DNA of 64,000 nucleotides from a phage, in the sequence record PV730302.1. One strand, given 5' to 3'. Below are positions 6,412-62,455 of the stretch, piece by piece. The translations under genes and the position numbers were made by a program. A model generated the notes under the pieces. It saw only the letters and a program-made list of their open reading frames with translations. It was not told the DNA's origin and ran no database searches. Position 1 is the stretch's first letter; the number at the start of each line of letters is the position of its first letter.

Positions 6412-8538
6412 CTACATTTTGAATTTATTTGATAAAGAAGAGATATCCAAAGATGCAGCAAGGATTTCCATAGCCTCGTTACTTTCAGAAATGGATTCAC
6501 TAACCAAGAACTGTTTAAAGCCGTCCATCAGGCGAACTTCACCAGTTTCCATCAAATGGTCACCATCGTAAACAGATTCACTGAGCTCTGAAGGAGGTGT
6601 TACGGTAGCTTCCATAAGGTATTTGTGAGATACTCTATCATTCATGGCAAAAGCCGCTACTTTATCAACCTTCAACAATAATCCACGCGGAAGGATAATT
6701 TCTGCTTCTTCGGCATATTCTGTAAGGTCACCAGGAGCGATAACTTTAACTGCTTCAGCACCTCGAATAACCATACCAATTTCAGCAATTCTATCCGCAG
6801 GACCTTCAGGTGCAATTGGATTACCGAACTCGTCTTCTTCCCATTCTACCTCTTCGTCATCGACTTCACCCACATCAGATGAACTACCGCTAGCCAATTT
6901 AAACAACTCATCAGCGGAGGATAAAGAACCTTCGCCGCCAACAAAAACGGCTTGGTTGTCGAGGGCCATATAATTTTTACCAAATTCACCAAAGATGTTA
7001 GGCTTTAATGAGGCTGACACAAAGTTCTTAAAGTAAAATGTTTTGTTATCGATATTATGGCGCAGAATTTTGTATGGCAAATCCTGACCACGATACAAAA
7101 TAGTACCCTTAGGAAGTTTAATACCCTTAGTAAATGCTGAGTCTAAATCCTTAATCAATTTAATAGCCGTTGTATTGTTTTCGGATTCAGGTTTACCTAA
7201 AAGGAATAAGTTCATAGGAGCATATTCAGCTGCGCAATATTCAATAATAGCATTGCTTTCGTCTTTGGTTAGGTCCTTAGGTTTAATGAGCTCGCCTGAA
7301 TAAGCATATGCATCACTAATAGAATCGTTAACCAGTTTATAAACGGCTTCCATAGCGAAAGCAATTCGAGAGGCCTTTTCTGAAGGAGAACCCTTAAAAC
7401 GAGCACTCAAGTTATTAACAATTTTCTTAATAATATCCAGACTATTGGTTGTATTGATTTGCGAAAGACCACTTAAAAGTCTATCGACTTCTGTATTAAA
7501 AAATGCCATATTATTAGAGTAAATTTCAAACCCTTGTTTATCTCTATTAGCATAATTTAGTTTAAATTTACTATCAGTCATTAAAGCGTGCGTGAGGGCA
7601 ATAGTGTATCTAAAGTTGGCAAGGTCCTCGCTCTTAGATTTAAACTGAGAAGCCTGGCGCATTTTAGTAATAGCACCTTTTTTAAAGTTCTGACTAATCT
7701 GTTCAATACCTTCATTCTCAGGGCCTTCAGCCGTGTGAACCGGTACAGAAGCTTCAAACTCGTTATAAACCTGCAATTCTTTAGGGGACAAAGTTTCAGG
7801 CTCAGCAGTAGAATACTGTGCGGCTGCTGCCATACGACGGGAAATCTTAGTACGGGTAATGACAGCCTTATCAGTACGTTTCTCTTCAACTTGTGCAATA
7901 GATGCCGCTACTGCTTCGACCTTACTTACGGCCTGGCCGGTTTTCTTAGAAACATACACTTCGCCAACTTTAGACTCAACTTTAGTATAAAGATCGGCAT
8001 TAATTTCAGGCATACCCTTGATATCTTCAATATTAGCACCGCGACGTACTAAAAGAACGTAGGTATGTTTTCCGCTGAATTGGAACATGTCGTCAACAAC
8101 TTTAAACTTACCACCGGTACGGGCCATAGCCAAACGAGCTAATACGCGCTGAACGGTAGGGCCTTTACCTTTCATTTTCTTAGTAGGGAAACGGAATAAA
8201 ACCGCGTCCATTTTAAGTTTGTTTATTTGTTCGTATATGGTATCGAAAATGGTGTTCAGTGTACCGAGTGGATCGGTACCCAACCCACCCTTGAGTTCTG
8301 CCGGAGCGCCTTTAGCAGACAAACTCATCAAAATAACATGAACATATTTGTCGCCCGGCTTAACCATTTTAATAGCGTCTCCTTGAGACGCATAAGATAC
8401 CATACGAGCAACCAGATTATCGTTACCTGGGGCTTGGATAGAGAAAATCTGTGGAATACCGGAACCTGGTTTAAGATTTGTTACTGGATAGTTTTTAGCG
8501 GAATCACTATCAAAAACCTCATTTAAATTTTCCATCAT
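6412..8538 (-). CDS. alt: Alt-like ADP-ribosyltransferase, paralog B
   Basis: 708 aa; shares blocks ARMVSYAS.GDAIK, HVILMSLSAKG.PAELKGGLG, RFPTKKMKG with the upstream paralog; C-terminal ART-like motifs YRGQ, FVSASL, EAEIILPRG (R-S-E). Confidence 0.7.
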   Translation of the reverse strand: MMENLNEVFDSDSAKNYPVTNLKPGSGIPQIFSIQAPGNDNLVARMVSYASQGDAIKMVKPGDKYVHVILMSLSAKGAPAELKGGLGTDPLGTLNTIFDTIYEQINKLKMDAVLFRFPTKKMKGKGPTVQRVLARLAMARTGGKFKVVDDMFQFSGKHTYVLLVRRGANIEDIKGMPEINADLYTKVESKVGEVYVSKKTGQAVSKVEAVAASIAQVEEKRTDKAVITRTKISRRMAAAAQYSTAEPETLSPKELQVYNEFEASVPVHTAEGPENEGIEQISQNFKKGAITKMRQASQFKSKSEDLANFRYTIALTHALMTDSKFKLNYANRDKQGFEIYSNNMAFFNTEVDRLLSGLSQINTTNSLDIIKKIVNNLSARFKGSPSEKASRIAFAMEAVYKLVNDSISDAYAYSGELIKPKDLTKDESNAIIEYCAAEYAPMNLFLLGKPESENNTTAIKLIKDLDSAFTKGIKLPKGTILYRGQDLPYKILRHNIDNKTFYFKNFVSASLKPNIFGEFGKNYMALDNQAVFVGGEGSLSSADELFKLASGSSSDVGEVDDEEVEWEEDEFGNPIAPEGPADRIAEIGMVIRGAEAVKVIAPGDLTEYAEEAEIILPRGLLLKVDKVAAFAMNDRVSHKYLMEATVTPPSELSESVYDGDHLMETGEVRLMDGFKQFLVSESISESNEAMEILAASLDISSLSNKFKM

Positions 8539-14174: not shown

Positions 14175-14483
14175 TTAGCCTCGGTATTTCATTTGGAAGC
14201 AATGCTGCTCGTTACATTCAATAAAGAACTTGCGGTCTGCAGCAGAAATAATAATTCGTTCGTCTTGACGGGCGTCCGTTTTGATAGATTTCATATCATA
14301 AGACACTTTATCATACGGTATATAGATTTTATACACGTCGCCATTCTGGGCGAAATCAACACGGAATAGCTCTAGACCTATTAAATCAGTTACAAGACTG
14401 TTTATAGCATAGAACCCGTCAAGCTGACTAGTAGGCAAACAGTACCATTTACCTTCAATAAACTCTAACATAATTAACCTCAA
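14175..14483 (-). CDS. hypothetical protein
   Basis: 102-aa ORF; stop/start overlap with neighbours. Confidence 0.4.
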   Translation of the reverse strand: MRLIMLEFIEGKWYCLPTSQLDGFYAINSLVTDLIGLELFRVDFAQNGDVYKIYIPYDKVSYDMKSIKTDARQDERIIISAADRKFFIECNEQHCFQMKYRG

Positions 14484-14767
14484 TATCTCATCTGAAAGCC
14501 GTGTGATTTAACATTACCACCATAGATGTCAGAGGTATTGACTTCACGGGCGACACTTGGGTCGATATTGATATCATGGTTGAGCTTAGTGATTGCTAGG
14601 GTATCACGACCATTAACAGTACGGAATTCTACAGGGCATACAACATCGGCATAAGCCTTAATAGATTCACGAGTAGGTTGTTTGTCGGCAGGAACGTCTT
14701 TACCTGCTTTAGAGAAAACAACTTCACAGAAATTTTTACGAGTATCAAAATAAGTGGTCATAAACAT
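14480..14767 (-). CDS. hypothetical protein
   Basis: Track ORF to 14800; the first 11 codons are encoded by a GGAGGC-UUCG-GCCUCC hairpin (14783..14798); likely start is ATG 14765-14767 preceded by GAGGAAA. Confidence 0.4.
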   Translation of the reverse strand: MFMTTYFDTRKNFCEVVFSKAGKDVPADKQPTRESIKAYADVVCPVEFRTVNGRDTLAITKLNHDINIDPSVAREVNTSDIYGGNVKSHGFQMRY

Positions 14768-14808
14768 AATATTTTCCTCAAAGGAGGCCGAAGCCTCCAT
14801 TTTTAAGA

Positions 14809-15174
14809 TTAGATATCGAATTCGTTCAGAACTACATCAAAGATTGCTTCCAGGTGTTCAGGTTTAGCTCGGTTGCTCAGGATGTGACGAATCCAAGTTT
14901 TAACCAGAAGCTTACGATTAACACCGTTCCAGCAAGGATGGGTACCTAAATCACGTTGACGGAAATCGTCATCTAAAGCGATTTTAAAAGTAGAACCTTC
15001 CATTGTGATTGAAACCGTAATACCATTTTCAAAGCGCATATAAACGTAGTTAGGAGTCATGCACTGTTCGATTTCGCACACGGTGCCGTTGTTGTGTTTC
15101 CACAGGCAAATAACTTCAGAAGAACCAGCGATACCGTTAGAAACATATTTACGTTCGAAGTTGATGTAGTTCAT
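14809..15174 (-). CDS. hypothetical protein
   Basis: 121-aa ORF with its own upstream promoter-like cassette. Confidence 0.4.
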   Translation of the reverse strand: MNYINFERKYVSNGIAGSSEVICLWKHNNGTVCEIEQCMTPNYVYMRFENGITVSITMEGSTFKIALDDDFRQRDLGTHPCWNGVNRKLLVKTWIRHILSNRAKPEHLEAIFDVVLNEFDI

Positions 15175-15215
15175 TTTATTCTCCAGTTTGTTTTCGTATT
15201 ATTTGGTACAGGTCT

Positions 15216-15244
15216 ATAATAACACAACCTGTACCAAAGTAAAC
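15216..15244 (-). promoter_or_regulatory. early sigma70-like promoter (GTTTAC-N17-TATTAT) with -10 in loop of a 9-bp-stem hairpin
   Basis: Minus strand: GTTTAC, 17-nt spacer, TATTAT; flanked by ggtacaggt/acctgtacc inverted repeat (15205..15235); upstream of ORF starting at 15174. Confidence 0.5.
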
Positions 15245-15248
15245 TGTT

Positions 15249-15617
15249 TTATGCAACTTTAATCCAATTATCTAAATTTAATTCACCTTTAGCTTTCATT
15301 TTTTCAATCAACTCATCAGCAGTAGTGCGACCATTTTGATACCATGTAACATCTTCAGAATAACCAGTTTCTTCATCTTCATAAGTCTTACAACGAATCT
15401 TACCAAGAATCAAAGTTTTCAGTTCGTAGGTATCACCGGTAAAAAAGTTTGTTACTATAATTTTCCAAGAGAAGTCATCAGAAGGACCTTCCGGAGTCAT
15501 GCAACCTACAAATTCAAATTGTTCTTTGTACAAGTGCCATTGCATTTCTTTGGTTTCGATAGCTTTATAACCGTCGTGGTCTTTACCTTTGATGTATGAG
15601 TTAAGATTGATTTTCAT
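15249..15617 (-). CDS. hypothetical protein
   Basis: 122-aa ORF; its 5' leader is a near-identical copy of the leader of ORF 14809..15174. Confidence 0.4.
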   Translation of the reverse strand: MKINLNSYIKGKDHDGYKAIETKEMQWHLYKEQFEFVGCMTPEGPSDDFSWKIIVTNFFTGDTYELKTLILGKIRCKTYEDEETGYSEDVTWYQNGRTTADELIEKMKAKGELNLDNWIKVA

Positions 15618-15658
15618 TTTATTCTCCAGTTTGTTTTCGTATTATTTGGTACATGTCT

Positions 15659-15687
15659 ATAGTATCATGCCTACCGGAGATGTACAC
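15659..15687 (-). promoter_or_regulatory. early promoter-like element (GTGTAC-N17-TACTAT)
   Basis: Minus-strand -35/-10 hexamers with 17-nt spacing, directly downstream of a terminator hairpin and upstream of ORF start 15617. Confidence 0.45.
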
Positions 15688-15704
15688 CCTTTTTTTAAAG
15701 ATTT

Positions 15705-15734
15705 AGAAACAAAAATGGGACTCCGAAGAGTCCC
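15705..15734 (-). terminator. Rho-independent terminator (GGGACUC-UUCG-GAGUCCC + U-rich tail)
   Basis: 7-bp GC-rich stem with UUCG tetraloop on the minus-strand transcript followed by AUUUUUGUUUCU; begins 5 nt after the stop of the small ORF 15740..15901. Confidence 0.6.
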
Positions 15735-15739
15735 ATAAC

Positions 15740-15901
15740 TTATGCCTGAGGCTTACCAAAGCAAGCAGCATCTGCACGCAATACTGCACGAGCACGAGCT
15801 TGAAGCTTATCAACTACCTGATTGATACGCTTGTTGGACGCACGCTTGTAACCAGCGCGTTTAGAGGTACCGTCAACTACTTTAACTTCTTTCTTAGCCA
15901 T
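15740..15901 (-). CDS. small basic protein, 53 aa (absent from ORF track, under 60 aa)
   Basis: Hand translation: MAKKEVKVVDGTSKRAGYKRASNKRINQVVDKLQARARAVLRADAACFGKPQA; clean ATG..TAA ORF with a dedicated terminator immediately downstream; RBS weak (GAGA). Confidence 0.4.
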   Translation of the reverse strand: MAKKEVKVVDGTSKRAGYKRASNKRINQVVDKLQARARAVLRADAACFGKPQA

Positions 15902-16164
15902 TTTTAAATCTCTTAAATTAGGATGCAGGACTTATTGGCGTTGCCTGCGCAAGCCCTCAAGGGGAACATAGGTTTCGGATATTTAACGACAGGATAACCA
16001 TAAACCTCGTCATCATACCAACCACGACTTAGACAGATAACCTTTTTCTGACGCGTGATAGTACAAAATACATTCAAGAGGTACACCGTAAAACTGTTGG
16101 GGTCTTAAAACTATAATGATTCGCAAATCATTAATCAAACAGTTCGACGGCTCCTCGATTTAAC

Positions 16165-16413
16165 TTACTTCAGGGTAATAATAAAATGACGTACTGCTTT
16201 ACGAGCTGCTGAAGCCAAAGGCTTAGCAAATTTCAGTTCATCTTTAGCTTCCAGTTCAGCAGCCAGAGTAGCCTGAGCTGGGTTCAGATGTTTGAAATAA
16301 CGCAGGATTTCCAGTGCTTCGGCTTCAACATCAATAGATGCGCCGTAGTTTTCGTGACCGTTGTTCCAAGCGTTGCGTTGCAGTTCAAGAGCGTGATTCA
16401 GATGTTTGTTCAT
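16165..16413 (-). CDS. rIII: rIII-like protein (by size and position)
   Basis: 82 aa, same length as T4 rIII, located immediately downstream of gene 31 as in T4. Sequence identity not verified. Confidence 0.4.
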   Translation of the reverse strand: MNKHLNHALELQRNAWNNGHENYGASIDVEAEALEILRYFKHLNPAQATLAAELEAKDELKFAKPLASAARKAVRHFIITLK

Positions 16414-30522: not shown

Positions 30523-30762
30523 TCACGCTTTCTTAGCGATTTTCCAGTCAGCTTTAAATTGGTCAACGTCTGAGTGGTGAATCCAGAAACCCGATGAGCT
30601 ACCGTCTTCGTAAAGAGGACAACCATCACACTCATCTTTCCACCCCATTGCACACAAAGCTTGTTCAGCTTTTTCCAGAGCTTCCGGGTTATTACCTTGG
30701 ATTGTGAAGTACCATTTGCCTTTAACTTCAGAATCGTTGATTGATTCACGTTGTAATTTCAT
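30523..30762 (-). CDS. hypothetical acidic protein with Cys cluster
   Basis: 79 aa; CAMGWKDECDGC motif; composition typical of phage early proteins. Confidence 0.4.
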   Translation of the reverse strand: MKLQRESINDSEVKGKWYFTIQGNNPEALEKAEQALCAMGWKDECDGCPLYEDGSSSGFWIHHSDVDQFKADWKIAKKA

Positions 30763-30838
30763 TTTATTCTCCGGTGTTTAGTTGTTATCTCAGTATGGGG
30801 CCATTATATCATAGCCCCATTTGGCTGTACACCACTTT

Positions 30839-31216
30839 TTACTGAATATCAAAAGTCGCTTTAATCAGGGCAATGACTTCAGCGGCATTTTTGTGATTGA
30901 CTTGTACATGAATGGTTTGGGTATCAATATCAGGGGCATCGCTATCAACTTCTAGGAAGTGACAGAATTCCCATTCACCGAGTTCAAAGTACTCATCAGG
31001 CCCACCCATACTATTCAGGATGGTGCCATCTTTCATTTCAACTTTTTCAACAAAATAATCACCTTCAATATAACTCATATCCAGGACTTTGAAGGAATTG
31101 CCATGTCGTTCCATCAACCTGACCATGCACGAATTATAATTATCATCAGGACTACCAGCGATGAATTGTTTTTTAGCAGCAGGGTCTAATACGTAAAATT
31201 TACCAGTTTCCATCAT
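30839..31216 (-). CDS. hypothetical protein, paralog family X (member 1)
   Basis: Track ORF starts with TTG at 31285; ATGATG at 31211-31216 preceded by GAGGAAA; shares YFEL..EF..F and IH..V........I.L.K.TF C-terminal pattern with ORF 31828..32211. Confidence 0.45.
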   Translation of the reverse strand: MMETGKFYVLDPAAKKQFIAGSPDDNYNSCMVRLMERHGNSFKVLDMSYIEGDYFVEKVEMKDGTILNSMGGPDEYFELGEWEFCHFLEVDSDAPDIDTQTIHVQVNHKNAAEVIALIKATFDIQ

Positions 31217-31274
31217 TTTAATTTCCTCATTTTTGTTGAGGGAACATATTATCATGTTCCCGTCGGTTTGTATA

Positions 31275-31502
31275 CTAAGCTTCAATCAAATTCATATAAA
31301 ATTCAGCGTCTTCCGGGTGCATCCCTTCGCAATATTCATTTTGCATAAAGCGGGTAAGGTCTTCAAGAGGACCTTGGACTTCAATTTGAATACTAAAGAA
31401 TTGGGTATCTTTAATGTAAGTCATACACAAAGAAGGATAACGATTACGGATAACTTCGTAAGTGTATTCAAAATCAACGATATCAATATTAACCTTAGCC
31501 AT
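31275..31502 (-). CDS. hypothetical protein
   Basis: Track ORF to 31520 begins ATGAGTGAGGAAAAT (likely the SD); probable start at ATG 31500-31502 (MAKVNIDIV...). Confidence 0.4.
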
Positions 31503-31534
31503 TTTATTTTCCTCACTCATTAGTTGATAGGTCT

Positions 31535-31563
31535 ATAGTATCATGTTTAAAGCAGATGTAAAC
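31535..31563 (-). promoter_or_regulatory. early promoter-like element (GTTTAC-N17-TACTAT)
   Basis: Part of a roughly 40-bp cassette (ttgataggtctatagtatcatgtttaaag...) repeated near 32230, 49094 and 49421. Confidence 0.45.
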
Positions 31564-31827: not shown

Positions 31828-32211
31828 TTAGGCCTTAAAAGTTTTTTGCAAAAGTTCAATGATTTGGTCAACGTTCTGTTCGGTAACAATGCAATGGATT
31901 TGAGTCACACCTGCTTTAGTAACAGGTCCGTCAACTTCATCTTGTTCGGCATATTCACGGAAGCAATAGAACTCGTCTTCATGCAATTCAAAATATTCCT
32001 CTAGTGTCCCGTCTGCACTAAAAATCTCGCCATTTGCACATTTGATTTTAGTTACAAATTTATCCCCATCCGTAGTCATTGTATCCTTTACTTCAAACCA
32101 TCCGCCATTGTCTTGGATAATATCCACCATATCGTTATTATTGATAGGGGTGATATTAATAAAAGATTTGATACGCTCAGGACGAAGTTCGTATTTTTTA
32201 CCGATTTCCAT
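31828..32211 (-). CDS. hypothetical protein, paralog family X (member 2)
   Basis: 127 aa; N-terminal MEIGKKYEL and C-terminal block shared with ORF 30839..31216. Confidence 0.45.
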   Translation of the reverse strand: MEIGKKYELRPERIKSFINITPINNNDMVDIIQDNGGWFEVKDTMTTDGDKFVTKIKCANGEIFSADGTLEEYFELHEDEFYCFREYAEQDEVDGPVTKAGVTQIHCIVTEQNVDQIIELLQKTFKA

Positions 32212-32240: not shown

Positions 32241-32269
32241 ATAGTATCATGTTTAAAGGCATTGTAAAC
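32241..32269 (-). promoter_or_regulatory. early promoter-like element (GTTTAC-N17-TACTAT)
   Basis: Immediately downstream of the gene 32 terminator hairpin; stem-loop plus promoter arrangement. Confidence 0.5.
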
Positions 32270-32280
32270 CATTAAATGCC

Positions 32281-32304
32281 AAAAAGGGAAGACCGAAGTC
32301 TTCC
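32281..32304 (-). terminator. Rho-independent terminator downstream of gene 32
   Basis: GGGAAGAC-UUCG-GUCUUCCC hairpin followed by UUUU on the minus-strand transcript, 18 nt after the gene 32 stop. Confidence 0.6.
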
Positions 32305-32321
32305 CATTATGAATCAATAAC

Positions 32322-48432: not shown

Positions 48433-49068
48433 TCAGATAATTGCGTTGGTTACGGTTTTGATAACTTCAGATGATACGTTTTGGAAGTCGATATAAGTAT
48501 TCTTACCACCAGTCTTAATCTTAACATCAAGATTCAAGGAAGTAAACACTTGTTTTTCTTTATCAGTCATATTATAACCGAAGATGCGCATCATGCCATC
48601 ACGACGGACTTCAATTTGACGGATACCGTTGGTACGTTTAGCGAATCGAACTTCAAGGTTGCTACGGTTTTCAGCAATTTCACGAATCTCGATACGGTCT
48701 TCTAATAAAGCTTTAACTTCATCAGCCAGTGTTACCATTTCAGGAGTAACACCACGTGAACTACGCGTTTTACGTTTTTCCAACATCTCTGGAGCATTTT
48801 CAGAAGCGAACAGGTCGGCAGCTTTTTGAACGAGGTCCATTGCTTCACCTGTAGCCACTAAACCGTCACCAGATTTTTCGATGAATCCTTTCTTAATCAA
48901 TACACCGATGTTAGAGTTAACCACTGCTGCACTAAATTGCTCACTCAGGGCTTCACGGACTTCGCCTGAAGTGATGAAGTTATGCTTGATGATATGTACT
49001 AAGATCGAAGCAGTTTTTTCATTCAGGGTGTCTTCAGAAGCTTTGATGATATAAGTAATTTTAGACAT
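48433..49068 (-). CDS. motA: middle transcription activator MotA
   Basis: 211 aa (same as T4 MotA); MSK.TYIIKAS.D.LNEKTA, AEVRE, AVVNSNIGVLIKKG..EKSGDGL, EKRTNGIR, MRIFGY match T4 as recalled. Confidence 0.9.
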   Translation of the reverse strand: MSKITYIIKASEDTLNEKTASILVHIIKHNFITSGEVREALSEQFSAAVVNSNIGVLIKKGFIEKSGDGLVATGEAMDLVQKAADLFASENAPEMLEKRKTRSSRGVTPEMVTLADEVKALLEDRIEIREIAENRSNLEVRFAKRTNGIRQIEVRRDGMMRIFGYNMTDKEKQVFTSLNLDVKIKTGGKNTYIDFQNVSSEVIKTVTNAII

Positions 49069-49102: not shown

Positions 49103-49131
49103 ATAGTATCATGTTTAAAGCGAAAGTAAAC
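49103..49131 (-). promoter_or_regulatory. early promoter-like element (GTTTAC-N17-TACTAT) upstream of motA
   Basis: Copy of the repeated 40-bp cassette; about 35 nt upstream of the motA ATG. Confidence 0.5.
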
Positions 49132-49172
49132 TTTATTTTGAGCTCTTTTTCAAGAGCTCCGGTAAAAATTAC

Positions 49173-49388
49173 TTAGATTGAAAGTTCTTTAATCTCTGTG
49201 ATTAAAGCAGCTTTCCCTTCACGAAGTTTTTCCAGTTCACGACCATTAGAGCCGCGAACTACTAAGGAATTTATCTCCACTTCTAACCAATTCAGTTTTT
49301 CAACTAGTTCTTTACGTTTAGCATTCATGCCAGGTTTAACTTTACCGAAACGGATGGTAGCGTTTTGGGTATTTTTCATCTTATTCAT
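49173..49388 (-). CDS. hypothetical small basic protein
   Basis: Track ORF begins with GTG at 49406; ATG at 49386-49388 (MNKMKNTQ...) preceded by GGAGAT. Confidence 0.35.
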   Translation of the reverse strand: MNKMKNTQNATIRFGKVKPGMNAKRKELVEKLNWLEVEINSLVVRGSNGRELEKLREGKAALITEIKELSI

Positions 49389-49426: not shown

Positions 49427-49455
49427 ATAATAACACGTTTAAAGCAGATGTATAC
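49427..49455 (-). promoter_or_regulatory. early promoter-like element (GTATAC-N17-TATTAT)
   Basis: Directly downstream of the terminator hairpin at 49475..49496. Confidence 0.4.
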
Positions 49456-49474
49456 CTTTATTTTCACTAAACCC

Positions 49475-49496
49475 AAAAAAGGAGCCCGAAGGCTCC
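49475..49496 (-). terminator. Rho-independent terminator (GGAGCC-UUCG-GGCUCC + U6)
   Basis: Hairpin begins right at the stop of the 34-aa peptide ORF downstream of gene 52; followed by UUUUUU on the minus transcript. Confidence 0.65.
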
Positions 49497-61893: not shown

Positions 61894-62399
61894 ATTGTTC
61901 TCAATTCAATAAAATCTACGAGTTCAGCATGGGATTTGCGGAACATTACTTGGCGGTCACCGATGACAACCTCATCTTCTGGTATTTCGTAAACAGCAAG
62001 ATAGAATCCTTTAGAAGATAATTCGGCACGCTCTTCACGAGTGAACCAGCGCATCATATCATACTCGCTGGCAAAAGCAAAATGGTAGAGGTTAACAAAC
62101 CAACTAGGGATATAGTTATCTACACCTTTATAATCTTCATGTTCGAATTTGGTTTTAATTACCATATTAGAATTTTTAACCAACAATTCGTCTTGACTTG
62201 GTAGTGGAATATTTTTATTATTGGTATGATGGTGTCTAAAATTAGGTCTGTCGAAACCGACTTCCAATAACCAACCTTCACTCCATTCGTCAAATGAGCC
62301 TCTATACGGGGTTAATTGGCGACATTGTTGACGAGTGATTGCGATAACATCGCTGTTGTCTAAGATACTGAACGATGACTCCACTCGATAAATTTTCAT
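61890..62399 (-). CDS. hypothetical protein (possibly motB position)
   Basis: 169 aa; SD GAGGAG lies in an inverted-repeat arm; T4 MotB is of similar size and sits upstream of dexA, but identity is unverified. Confidence 0.35.
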   Translation of the reverse strand: MKIYRVESSFSILDNSDVIAITRQQCRQLTPYRGSFDEWSEGWLLEVGFDRPNFRHHHTNNKNIPLPSQDELLVKNSNMVIKTKFEHEDYKGVDNYIPSWFVNLYHFAFASEYDMMRWFTREERAELSSKGFYLAVYEIPEDEVVIGDRQVMFRKSHAELVDFIELRTI

Positions 62400-62426
62400 T
62401 TTGTTCTCCTCATGTTGATAGGGTAG

Positions 62427-62455
62427 ATAATATCATGCCATGAGGAGAAGTAAAC
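62427..62455 (-). promoter_or_regulatory. early promoter-like element (GTTTAC-N17-TATTAT) inside SD-sequestering inverted repeat
   Basis: 9-bp arms ctcctcatg (62406..62414, SD/start region) and catgaggag (62439..62447, promoter spacer). Confidence 0.45.

Follow-up and report, generated by a model that had tools for sequence, protein, structure and literature searches.

Two cassettes at genes 30.8 and 30.7

The subject of this analysis is a set of short regulatory cassettes that stand before early genes, above all genes 30.8 and 30.7, in a 64,000-nucleotide (nt) stretch of phage DNA (sequence record PV730302.1; the whole stretch is called the window). In a megablast search with 14400-16200, which matched 776 phage records, the window was closest to the Dhakavirus genomes ABTNLsp5, IME341, IME08 and PSD9 (95-97.5% identity), and it is classified on sequence as Dhakavirus, a JS98/IME08-like coliphage of the T4 type. 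The early genes of the window lie on the minus strand, here in the order cd, 31.2, 31.1, 31, rIII, 30.9, 30.8, 30.7 and 30.6 (names from the annotated IME08 and T4 records). Because all local genes are on the minus strand, the repeats are to be read on that strand. The following features make up the locus.

15740-15901, minus strand: gene 30.9, named via the IME08 and T4 records
15710-15736, minus strand: terminator-like stem-loop after 30.9, AUGGGACUC-UUCG-GAGUCCCAU (15736-15715) with a T run (15714-15710), from sequence and terminator scan
15659-15703, minus strand: predicted promoter P30.8, with an A/T tract, -35 box GTGTAC (15687-15682), TGa (15667-15665) and -10 box TACTAT (15664-15659); 43 bits in the weight matrix described below
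15615-15661, minus strand: first copy of a long repeat, with the end of the -10 box, the leader, the Shine-Dalgarno sequence (SD) GGAG (15627-15624) and the ATG (15617-15615) of 30.8, from pattern and repeat search
15617-15627, minus strand: GGAGAAUAAAA, a perfect 11/11 match to GGAGRAYARAA that overlaps the 30.8 SD, from consensus scan
15249-15617, minus strand: gene 30.8, 122 amino acids (aa), PF06019, between both copies of the long repeat, from open reading frame (ORF) and Pfam analysis
15216-15244, minus strand: predicted promoter P30.7, with -35 box GTTTAC (15244-15239), TGt (15224-15222) and -10 box TATTAT (15221-15216); a matrix hit
15202-15238, minus strand: stem-loop around the P30.7 -10 box, arms UUUGGUACAGGU (15238-15227) and ACCUGUACCAAA (15213-15202), 12 bp without mismatch around a 13-nt loop in which the -10 box lies, from inverted-repeat search
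15172-15218, minus strand: second copy of the long repeat, with the end of the -10 box, the leader, the SD GGAG and the ATG (15174-15172) of 30.7, from pattern and repeat search
15174-15184, minus strand: perfect RegB consensus match in the second copy, at the 30.7 SD, from consensus scan
14809-15174, minus strand: gene 30.7, 121 aa, PF06919, from ORF and Pfam analysis

An earlier note on this DNA had placed a repeat of roughly 44 bp upstream of both ORF 14809-15174 and ORF 15249-15617. The repeat was found there in exactly two copies (15172-15218 and 15615-15661; shuffle expectation 0) that agree at 46 of 47 positions, and it extends to 55 nt at 95% identity (15170-15224 and 15613-15667, spacing 443 nt), which corrects its length to 47-55 nt. 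On the gene strand both copies read TAyTATAGACmTGTACCAAATAATACGAAAACAAACTGGAGAATAAAATG, running from the end of the -10 box through a leader of ~38 nt, which is the full 5′ leader, and the SD to the ATG of 30.8 or 30.7, and both terminate at the ATG of the minus-strand ORF. The SD/ATG block GGAGAATAAAATG was present at the 3′ end of both units. The -35 box and the spacer lie outside the long repeat, and both differ between 30.8 and 30.7. Compared with Rfam, the leaders matched no known RNA family at E ≤ 1.

The 3′ end of the repeat, GGAGAATAAAA, agrees perfectly with the consensus for strong RegB/S1 cleavage in T4 early mRNAs, GG*AGRAYARAA (Uzan and Miller 2010, PMC3014915). Perfect matches to GGAGRAYARAA occurred four times in the window, compared with 0.27 expected, each at the SD of a minus-strand early gene; the two further ones are at 30762-30772 and 62399-62409 (minus strand, consensus scan). 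Like the RegB/S1 sites of T4, both leaders end in an 11/11 consensus match within an early-gene SD, and the SDs of 30.8 and 30.7 are predicted to double as strong RegB cleavage sites. In transcripts from their own promoters, the 30.8 and 30.7 leaders were predicted to be unpaired.

P30.8, with a predicted start near 15652, can be written TGTACA-16-TACTAT with TG; it has the layout of T4 P30.8 and matches the promoter consensus TTTACW..TAYWAT that has been published for T4/PST-type promoter-early stem-loop (PeSL) cassettes (PMC4122927). P30.7, which begins 5 nt past the 30.8 stop codon and is conserved in T4, was also called by a generic scan (TTTACT-16-TATTAT with TG). Upstream of the -35 box P30.8 has the AT tract CTAAATCTTTAAAAAAAGG; at P30.7 the tract is no more than CATAAAACA, short and overlapping with the stop codon. 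The 30.9 stop and the 30.8 ATG are 122 nt apart (15739-15618), the 30.8 stop and the 30.7 ATG 74 nt (15248-15175), the latter leaving no space for an upstream terminator at P30.7. Promoters of this clade have a 16-nt spacer, those of T4 one of 16-17 nt. In T4, 30.9 is likewise followed by a UUCG hairpin, a T run, GTTTAC..TGaTAGTAT and then GGAGAATAAAATG of 30.8, and GTTTAC..TGaTATTAT stands right after the 30.8 stop codon, before 30.7. The 9-bp hairpin after 30.9, independently called by the terminator scan, is kept with compensatory changes in T4 (GAGGACUCC-UUCG-GGAGUCCUU) and in other relatives. The literature on T4 transcription-start mapping and on 30.7 and 30.8 yielded nothing useful.

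Cassettes elsewhere in the window and gene exchange around them

A second cassette of about 40 bp had been reported near 31524, 32230, 49094 and 49421, and it was recovered at all four places (-10 boxes starting at 31540, 32246, 49108 and 49432). On the minus strand it reads GTTTAC..CTTTAAAC.TGaTAcTATAGACCTATCAA, with the gene-strand consensus GTTTAC-N11-14-TGa-TAcTAT-AGACCTATCAA and 17 nt between GTTTAC and the -10 box. Judged by these motifs, it is the T4-type early promoter of the clade (GTTTAC, TGn, TAyTAT, AGACCTATCAA).

32241-32305, minus strand: cassette after gene 32, with stem-loop GGGAAGAC-UUCG-GUCUUCCC (32305-32286), T run, -35 box GTTTAC (32269-32264), -10 box TACTAT (32246-32241) and ATG at 32211, from matrix and folding
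31535-31563, minus strand: promoter cassette before the frd.3 homologue, with -35 box (31563-31558) and -10 box (31540-31535), no stem-loop, from matrix
49427-49496, minus strand: cassette after gene 52, with GGAGCC-UUCG-GGCUCC (49496-49481), T run (49480-49475), -35 box GTATAC (49455-49450), -10 box TATTAT (49432-49427) and leader A to the ATG at 49388, from matrix and folding
49103-49160, minus strand: cassette before motA, with stem-loop GGAGCUCUU-GAAA-AAGAGCUC (49160-49140) without T run, -35 box GTTTAC (49131-49126), -10 box TACTAT (49108-49103) and motA ATG at 49068, from matrix and folding

The core TAnTATAGAC occurred eight times in the window, always on the minus strand. A weight matrix built from the cassette sites in three refinement rounds, with composition-matched shuffles as control, gave 13 strong sites of 31-50 bits, again all on the minus strand (top shuffle score 18). 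The first matrix leaned too heavily on the TATAGAC core, so that promoters such as those at 31251, 30808 and 60681 escaped it; a less strict T4-early pattern (GTTTAC, up to one mismatch allowed, 16-18 nt, TGn, TAnnWT) recovered them and matched 23 times on the minus strand and once on the plus strand. T4 early promoters (Pe), at which unmodified host sigma-70 polymerase starts right upon infection, belong to the 'uber' UP/-35/TGn/-10 type (Hinton 2010, PMC2988021); the window promoters resemble them in the GTTTAC -35 box, TGn, the TAnnAT -10 box, the upstream A-tract and the extra conserved start positions, and the T4 Pe before 30.8 and 30.7 are positional homologues of those in the window. 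They differ in the start region (TATAGACCTATCAAC in Dhakavirus, TACTATACAACTATCAAC in T4) and in the spacer, which in most cases is shorter by one base. UUCG-loop hairpins with T runs, which the earlier note had set before several copies, were present at three positions (15736-15715, 32305-32286 and 49496-49481). Among the 13 strong promoters, an upstream hairpin with T run accompanied only three, and ~7 had an overlapping stem.

The cassette loci had further been called plastic. The motif search and the comparison of flanking gene content proposed along with that claim were carried out, and apart from the 13 matrix sites they yielded swap, loss and gain of genes at the cassettes of relatives: an allele swap at 30.8, a graded series of ORFs between 52 and motA, and rearrangements between gene 32 and frd. 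The repeats themselves are conserved in close relatives, with the 47-nt repeat retained by the JS98/IME08-like subclade and the promoter family by the whole genus.

At the 30.8 locus, which was compared across fourteen IMG/VR relatives and T4, gp30.8 occurs as two alleles of 122 and 110 aa with ~43% aa identity. Phage records with gp30.8 numbered 1038 and those with gp30.7 numbered 995; among phages the gp30.8 alleles are only 38-44% identical, unlike the neighbouring gp30.7, which is 91-100% identical in aa sequence across Tequatro-, Mosig- and Dhakavirus (~715 records). The 122-aa type is nearest to Mosigvirus, Klebsiella and Enterobacter phage versions and is found at ~40% identity even in 145-kb phages. 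The window and the related locus L003 are ~100% identical on both flanks and 42-54% identical from 30.8 codon 3 to the P30.7 -35 box; the divergence begins just past ATGAAAA and ends at the -35 box, so that the block is bounded by the two cassettes. Compared with L013, of the VR20 type, the 30.8 ORF is ~95% identical and the P30.8 module 50-60%, with the terminator and the SD block as limits. Since these two patterns are opposite, ORF and promoter module exchange independently, and by this comparison the conserved joints of exchange are the stem-loop, the SD/RegB block and the promoter that comes next. In L003-L006 and L016, which carry the 110-aa allele, P30.7 has the -35 box TTTTAC and not GTTTAC (~70 nt before the 30.7 ATG), which means that the allele swap changed the first base of the downstream promoter.

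The slot between 52 and motA holds, in the window, a terminator, promoter, leader A, ORF-X, the GAAA-loop hairpin, promoter, leader B and motA.

49173-49388, minus strand: ORF-X, 71 aa, phrog_6200, between two promoter cassettes, from ORF and PHROG analysis

PSD9 has no ORF in this slot, with motA joined to leader A; the window has X, IME341 a different ORF-Y, and IME08 both X and Y, in three tandem cassettes, two of which make up a repeat of 80 nt (93% identical). The promoter/leader repeats contain the junctions, with direct repeats of 49-80 nt at them. The cassette-flanked units measure 443 bp (30.8) and 324 bp (ORF-X). The gene 32-frd locus varies among relatives by indels and by a displaced cassette with its gene.

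About 31150-31280, minus strand: region of an frd.2a-like gene (METGKFYVLDP...), promoter GTATAC..TAATAT with its -10 box inside the inverted repeat GGGAACAT/ATGTTCCC, from sequence and the JS10 locus (L027, 790-1161)

This gene, with its own cassette, follows frd.3 in the window and stands right after gene 32 in JS10, and has thus been displaced between slots. In the phages KP179 (Klebsiella; L025, 665-803) and phiR1-RT (Yersinia; L023, 665-803), 30.9 is followed directly by 30.7. In KP179 the 30.9 UUCG terminator and promoter are joined to a 30.7-type leader (TATAGACCTGTACC), which would look like the product of a cassette fusion with loss of 30.8.

PeSLs have been defined as a compact motif of up to ~100 bp from upstream stop to downstream ATG, with a stem-loop, an AT-rich tract, a T4-type early promoter, SD and ATG between small ORFs of hyperplastic regions (PMC2839356, PMC4122927), and a stem-loop that overlaps the -10 box marks a published subclass. 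The window cassettes share the compact intergenic motif, early promoter, stem-loop, AT-rich tract, SD with ATG and link to variable ORFs, and very probably they are PeSL-type regulatory cassettes of Dhakavirus. The definition fits the 30.8, 30.7, motA and gene-32 copies, in support of the earlier note's comparison with the stem-loop and early promoter architecture of mobile cassettes in T4-type phages. With its upstream UUCG terminator at 30.8 and the stem-loop wrapped around the -10 box at 30.7, the locus would comprise two complete PeSLs of different subclasses. As in the PeSLs published for T4-type phages, the same composite motif stands between small ORFs of hyperplastic regions, the stem-loop lies upstream of the promoter or over the -10 box, adjacent copies flank ORFs that differ between close relatives, and the promoter consensus is of the T4/PST type. 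The differences are the clade, the UUCG or GAAA tetraloops in place of the G-run/C-run stems of RB49, and the 47-55-nt identical segment, from -10 box to ATG, of two adjacent cassettes. For this clade the PeSL papers mention only 'PeSL-like sequences' of JS98 near gene 43.

By analogy with the published model, the stem-loop would end or attenuate incoming transcription; a short A/T tract would come next, then a very strong T4-type early promoter (GTTTAC, TGn, TAyTAT and the conserved start region) read by host sigma-70 RNA polymerase; and an A-rich unstructured leader, an SD doubling as a strong RegB site and the ATG would follow, each small early gene thus forming a self-contained expression unit. 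The cassettes would at the same time be repeated 40-100-bp homologies around small ORFs through which phage recombination could delete, insert or exchange the enclosed ORFs, and the natural variants among the relatives have the pattern expected from such exchange. Morons and integron gene cassettes are likewise single small genes with their own expression signals that are gained or lost as units. Morons, however, are not thought to move via regulatory sequences (PMC2839356), and in the window mobility is attributed to homologous recombination between regulatory repeats, with no integrase or attC-type site present.

Several observations weigh against this reading. P30.8 has a deviant -35 box (GTGTAC) and falls below the generic sigma-70 threshold (8/12 matches), and a classical upstream stem-loop is present at only 3-4 of the 13 strong promoters. 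No close relative among the listed megablast matches and the fourteen IMG/VR loci had lost 30.8 by deletion between the 47-nt copies; only the distant genera of KP179 and phiR1-RT are without 30.8 at this site. The 30.8 swap is flanked by identical sequence over more than 1 kb, so that crossovers could lie anywhere in the flanks and the cassettes mark limits of homology, not proven crossover points. An extra ORF between 30.6 and 30.5 is an indel with no cassette beside it, which means that not all local plasticity is cassette-mediated.

14175-14483, minus strand: extra ORF, 98-102 aa, phrog_28157, from comparison with relatives

This ORF, present in the window and L003 and absent from L006, L008, L013 and L010, overlaps the stop and start codons of its neighbours. 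Finally, we infer promoter and terminator activity, RegB cleavage and the mechanism of recombination from similarity to T4 and from reporter tests in RB49/phi1, the only phages for whose PeSLs promoter and terminator activity and mini-circles, formed when neighbouring copies recombine, have been shown (Arbiol et al. 2010, PMC2839356; Comeau et al. 2014, PMC4122927). The anatomy of the cassettes, their conservation and covariation and the boundaries of the mosaic are direct observations. The cassette model is already published and is not new in kind; what goes beyond the literature consulted are features of single instances, namely the homogenised 47-nt leader, the series of 0/1/1′/2 found naturally between 52 and motA, RegB sites that match perfectly, and stem-loops overlapping the -10 box with covariation and frequent SD pairing.

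Origin of the leader shared by 30.8 and 30.7

The extent of leader sharing depends on the clade. The 30.8 and 30.7 leaders have in common only GGAGAATAAAA(A)TG in T4, ~21 nt in VR20-type phages and ~15 nt in L007; a shared stretch of 47 nt or more is confined to the JS98/IME08-like subclade, here comprising the window, L003-L006, L008 and L016. Orthologous leaders diverge between clades (T4, VR20 type, L007, JS98 type) and the two copies within one genome are alike, a pattern that, as far as these sequences tell, is one of concerted evolution. The repeat also appears chimeric: the 3′ arm of the P30.7 stem-loop, which has no partner at 30.8, makes up the 5′ part of the repeat (ACCTGTACC), and the 3′ part of the repeat resembles the T4 30.8 leader; a search of the 30.8 copy for an arm that would pair with the GTACC element returned only a 6-bp GTACAT/ATGTAC match (P = 0.11). 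The stem-loop-arm part of the 30.8 copy was probably copied passively. We infer that the leaders became nearly identical by gene conversion or crossing-over between adjacent cassettes in one subclade; the SD block, which does not vary, apparently served as the anchor of the homogenised tract.

If one ancestral gene and the DNA upstream of it had been duplicated in tandem, 30.8 and 30.7 would be diverged paralogues, as might be suggested by their adjacency, their similar length (122 vs 121 aa) and a weak local BLASTP match at a common CMTP motif (E = 0.033). That match covers a short stretch only, however, and profile-profile comparison of gp30.7 with gp30.8 showed no relationship (hhalign probability 0.07%), in keeping with their separate Pfam and PHROG families. 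T4 and other clades own both genes without the long repeat, and a 98% identical leader beside unrelated coding sequence cannot be a passive relic. With unrelated products and no long repeat in T4, the repeat is derived and not a remnant of duplication; the duplication origin was rejected, and we regard it as extremely improbable.

The 47-nt identity could instead be due to purifying selection on a common cis-regulatory RNA, with no special role for recombination. The unstructured A-rich leader and the SD/RegB site would then give 30.8 and 30.7 equal translation and decay kinetics, and neighbouring ORFs would vary through homologous exchange of the ordinary kind. Such selection would agree with the invariance of the 3′ 11 nt, the perfect strong RegB/S1 site, at both genes in all relatives, and with the stability of the repeat in seven subclade sequences (the window and six related loci). 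A conserved operator does not account for leaders that differ between clades upstream of the GGAG block and yet are alike within a genome, which points to concerted evolution, nor for the P30.7 3′ arm ACAUGUACC that the 30.8 copy holds without a matching 5′ arm, which argues for passive copying; the lack of a match in Rfam also speaks against it. We consider this explanation unlikely, and exchange between adjacent cassettes is preferred.

Inverted repeats at the early promoters

About half of the early promoters contain an inverted repeat with its 5′ arm in the spacer from the -35 box to the -10 box and its 3′ arm past the -10 box or on the SD (minus-strand -10 boxes at 62432, 61319, 52560, 51817, 22429, 15664 and 15221; also 60681, 31251, 30808 and 21138). 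At 5 of the 13 strong promoters the spacer has a perfect complement of at least 9 nt in the region past the -10 box, compared with 0.7% of random positions. The own-arm duplex energies of seven window promoters, -13 to -22 kcal/mol, are the best or nearly the best when set against arms taken from other promoters, as are those of the T4 Pe at 8194, 129895, 130286 and 166783. The 3′ arm covers the SD at 62432, 52560 and 22429 (9-11 bp) and at 15664, which is P30.8; the stem-loops at P30.7, 61319 and 51817 stop short of it, the P30.7 stem ending 28 nt before the SD.

The pairing at P30.7 is kept with different arms in different phages: GGTACAGG/CCTGTACC in T4 and Dhakavirus, GGTGAGAGTCT/AGACTCTCACC in Winklervirus, GTGAGATAACA/TGTTATCTCAC in Serratia phage 4S, and CTCCGTTGTAT/ATACAACGGAG in Karamvirus, where it extends to the SD. 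In an alignment of seven sequences from about three lineages, which makes the result supportive and not conclusive, 94% of cells were paired and 8 of 11 pairs had changed on both sides, a result equalled in 0 of 500 shuffles; slid controls gave 29-49%. A palindromic protein operator at P30.7 was set aside, as other genera keep the pairing with unrelated arms.

At P30.8 the spacer can pair with the SD itself.

15673-15680, minus strand: promoter-spacer segment UCUCCGGU, complementary to ACUGGAGA at 15630-15623, which includes the 30.8 SD, from RNA folding and duplex calculation

The duplex has 8 bp with one G.U and an energy of -12.6 kcal/mol (shuffled-arm P = 0.006). Because its 5′ arm lies upstream of the promoter's own start, the pairing would be possible only in read-through RNA. 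Three cassette types pair the spacer with their own SD, namely the window type, T4 (UCCUUUGU/ACAAAGGA) and the VR20 type (UCCAGUG/CACUGGA), with P = 0.006-0.026 each; a fourth type, L007, showed no spacer-SD pairing.

These promoter-overlapping stem-loops might act mainly as DNA, either as a cruciform or hairpin target for a recombination or structure-specific nuclease or in promoter melting, and not as an RNA attenuator or translation gate. Arms that differ between promoters and yet stay complementary indicate that structure and not sequence is selected, as such a role would also entail, and Arbiol et al. speculated on a DNA-binding recombination factor at PeSL stem-loops (PMC2839356). Some variants, however, pair through G.U (L012, CUUGUACC; P51817 and P30.8 in the window; T4 Pe 8194 and 166783), and G.U on the gene strand is an A.C mismatch on the other strand, which favours RNA of the gene strand. 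The 3′ arm moreover is the SD in at least four window cassettes, which matters only for RNA. A role mainly as DNA thus seems quite improbable.

The alternative that we put forward, tentatively and as a possibility short of an expectation, is that the stem-loops are selected RNA structures that separate read-through from cassette-initiated transcripts. RNA arriving from upstream would form the hairpin, which in many cassettes would hide the SD/RegB site; RNA from the cassette's own promoter would lack the 5′ arm and would be translated and then cut by RegB, so that translation of the small gene would be tied to the few minutes in which its own early promoter fires. The role of the early stem-loops may be either to gate translation or RegB access, or only attenuation of transcription, as the PeSL papers propose. 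Known T4 cases in which a late promoter lies inside a hairpin (e, soc, 49, I-TevI/II/III, segB and mobE) all concern late genes (Edgell et al. 2010, PMC2988022). There too the hairpin sequesters the SD only on transcripts from upstream, and the gene's own promoter, inside the hairpin, gives translatable transcripts without the 5′ arm; the same geometry is found at 62432, 52560, 22429 and 15664 in the window and at the T4 Pe 8194, 130286 and 166783. The inner promoters of the window are of the early type (GTTTAC/TGn/TAnnAT) and not late (gp55) or middle ones that would delay translation to late times, so that the window cassettes, though they would work in a similar way, are not assigned to this group; the effect in the window is a prediction, and the stem-loops of P30.7, 61319 and 51817 miss the SD.

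Two further structures were noted at 30.7.

14783-14798, minus strand: UUCG hairpin GGAGGC-UUCG-GCCUCC immediately past the 30.7 stop codon and not followed by a promoter, from sequence and terminator scan

T4 has GAGGGGC-UUCA-GCCCCUU at this site, with the stem kept and a different sequence; in the window a T run follows the hairpin on the plus strand, so that it is terminator-like there too. Within 30.7, a perfect 12-nt inverted repeat links the first codons (15161-15172) with a segment near the 3′ end (14829-14840). Long-range pairing of the two ends was rejected as an element, since T4 keeps it with one G.U, distant genera lack it and covariation gives it no support; the repeat is probably incidental to protein conservation.

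The relatives of the window provide a well-documented natural series for the PeSL model, with one slot that is empty or holds either ORF or both, and one ORF that is swapped between two cassettes. They extend the model to Dhakavirus, a genus widely used in phage-therapy collections, and for annotation the clade gains a ready map of predicted promoters, terminators and RegB sites. The covarying stem-loops at the -10 box and the spacer-SD pairing suggest a layer of translational insulation in early T4-type transcription units. If gating is true, it would be the early-gene mirror image of the late-promoter-in-hairpin control of e, soc and I-TevI, and PeSLs, for which insulation of transcription has been proposed, would insulate translation as well.

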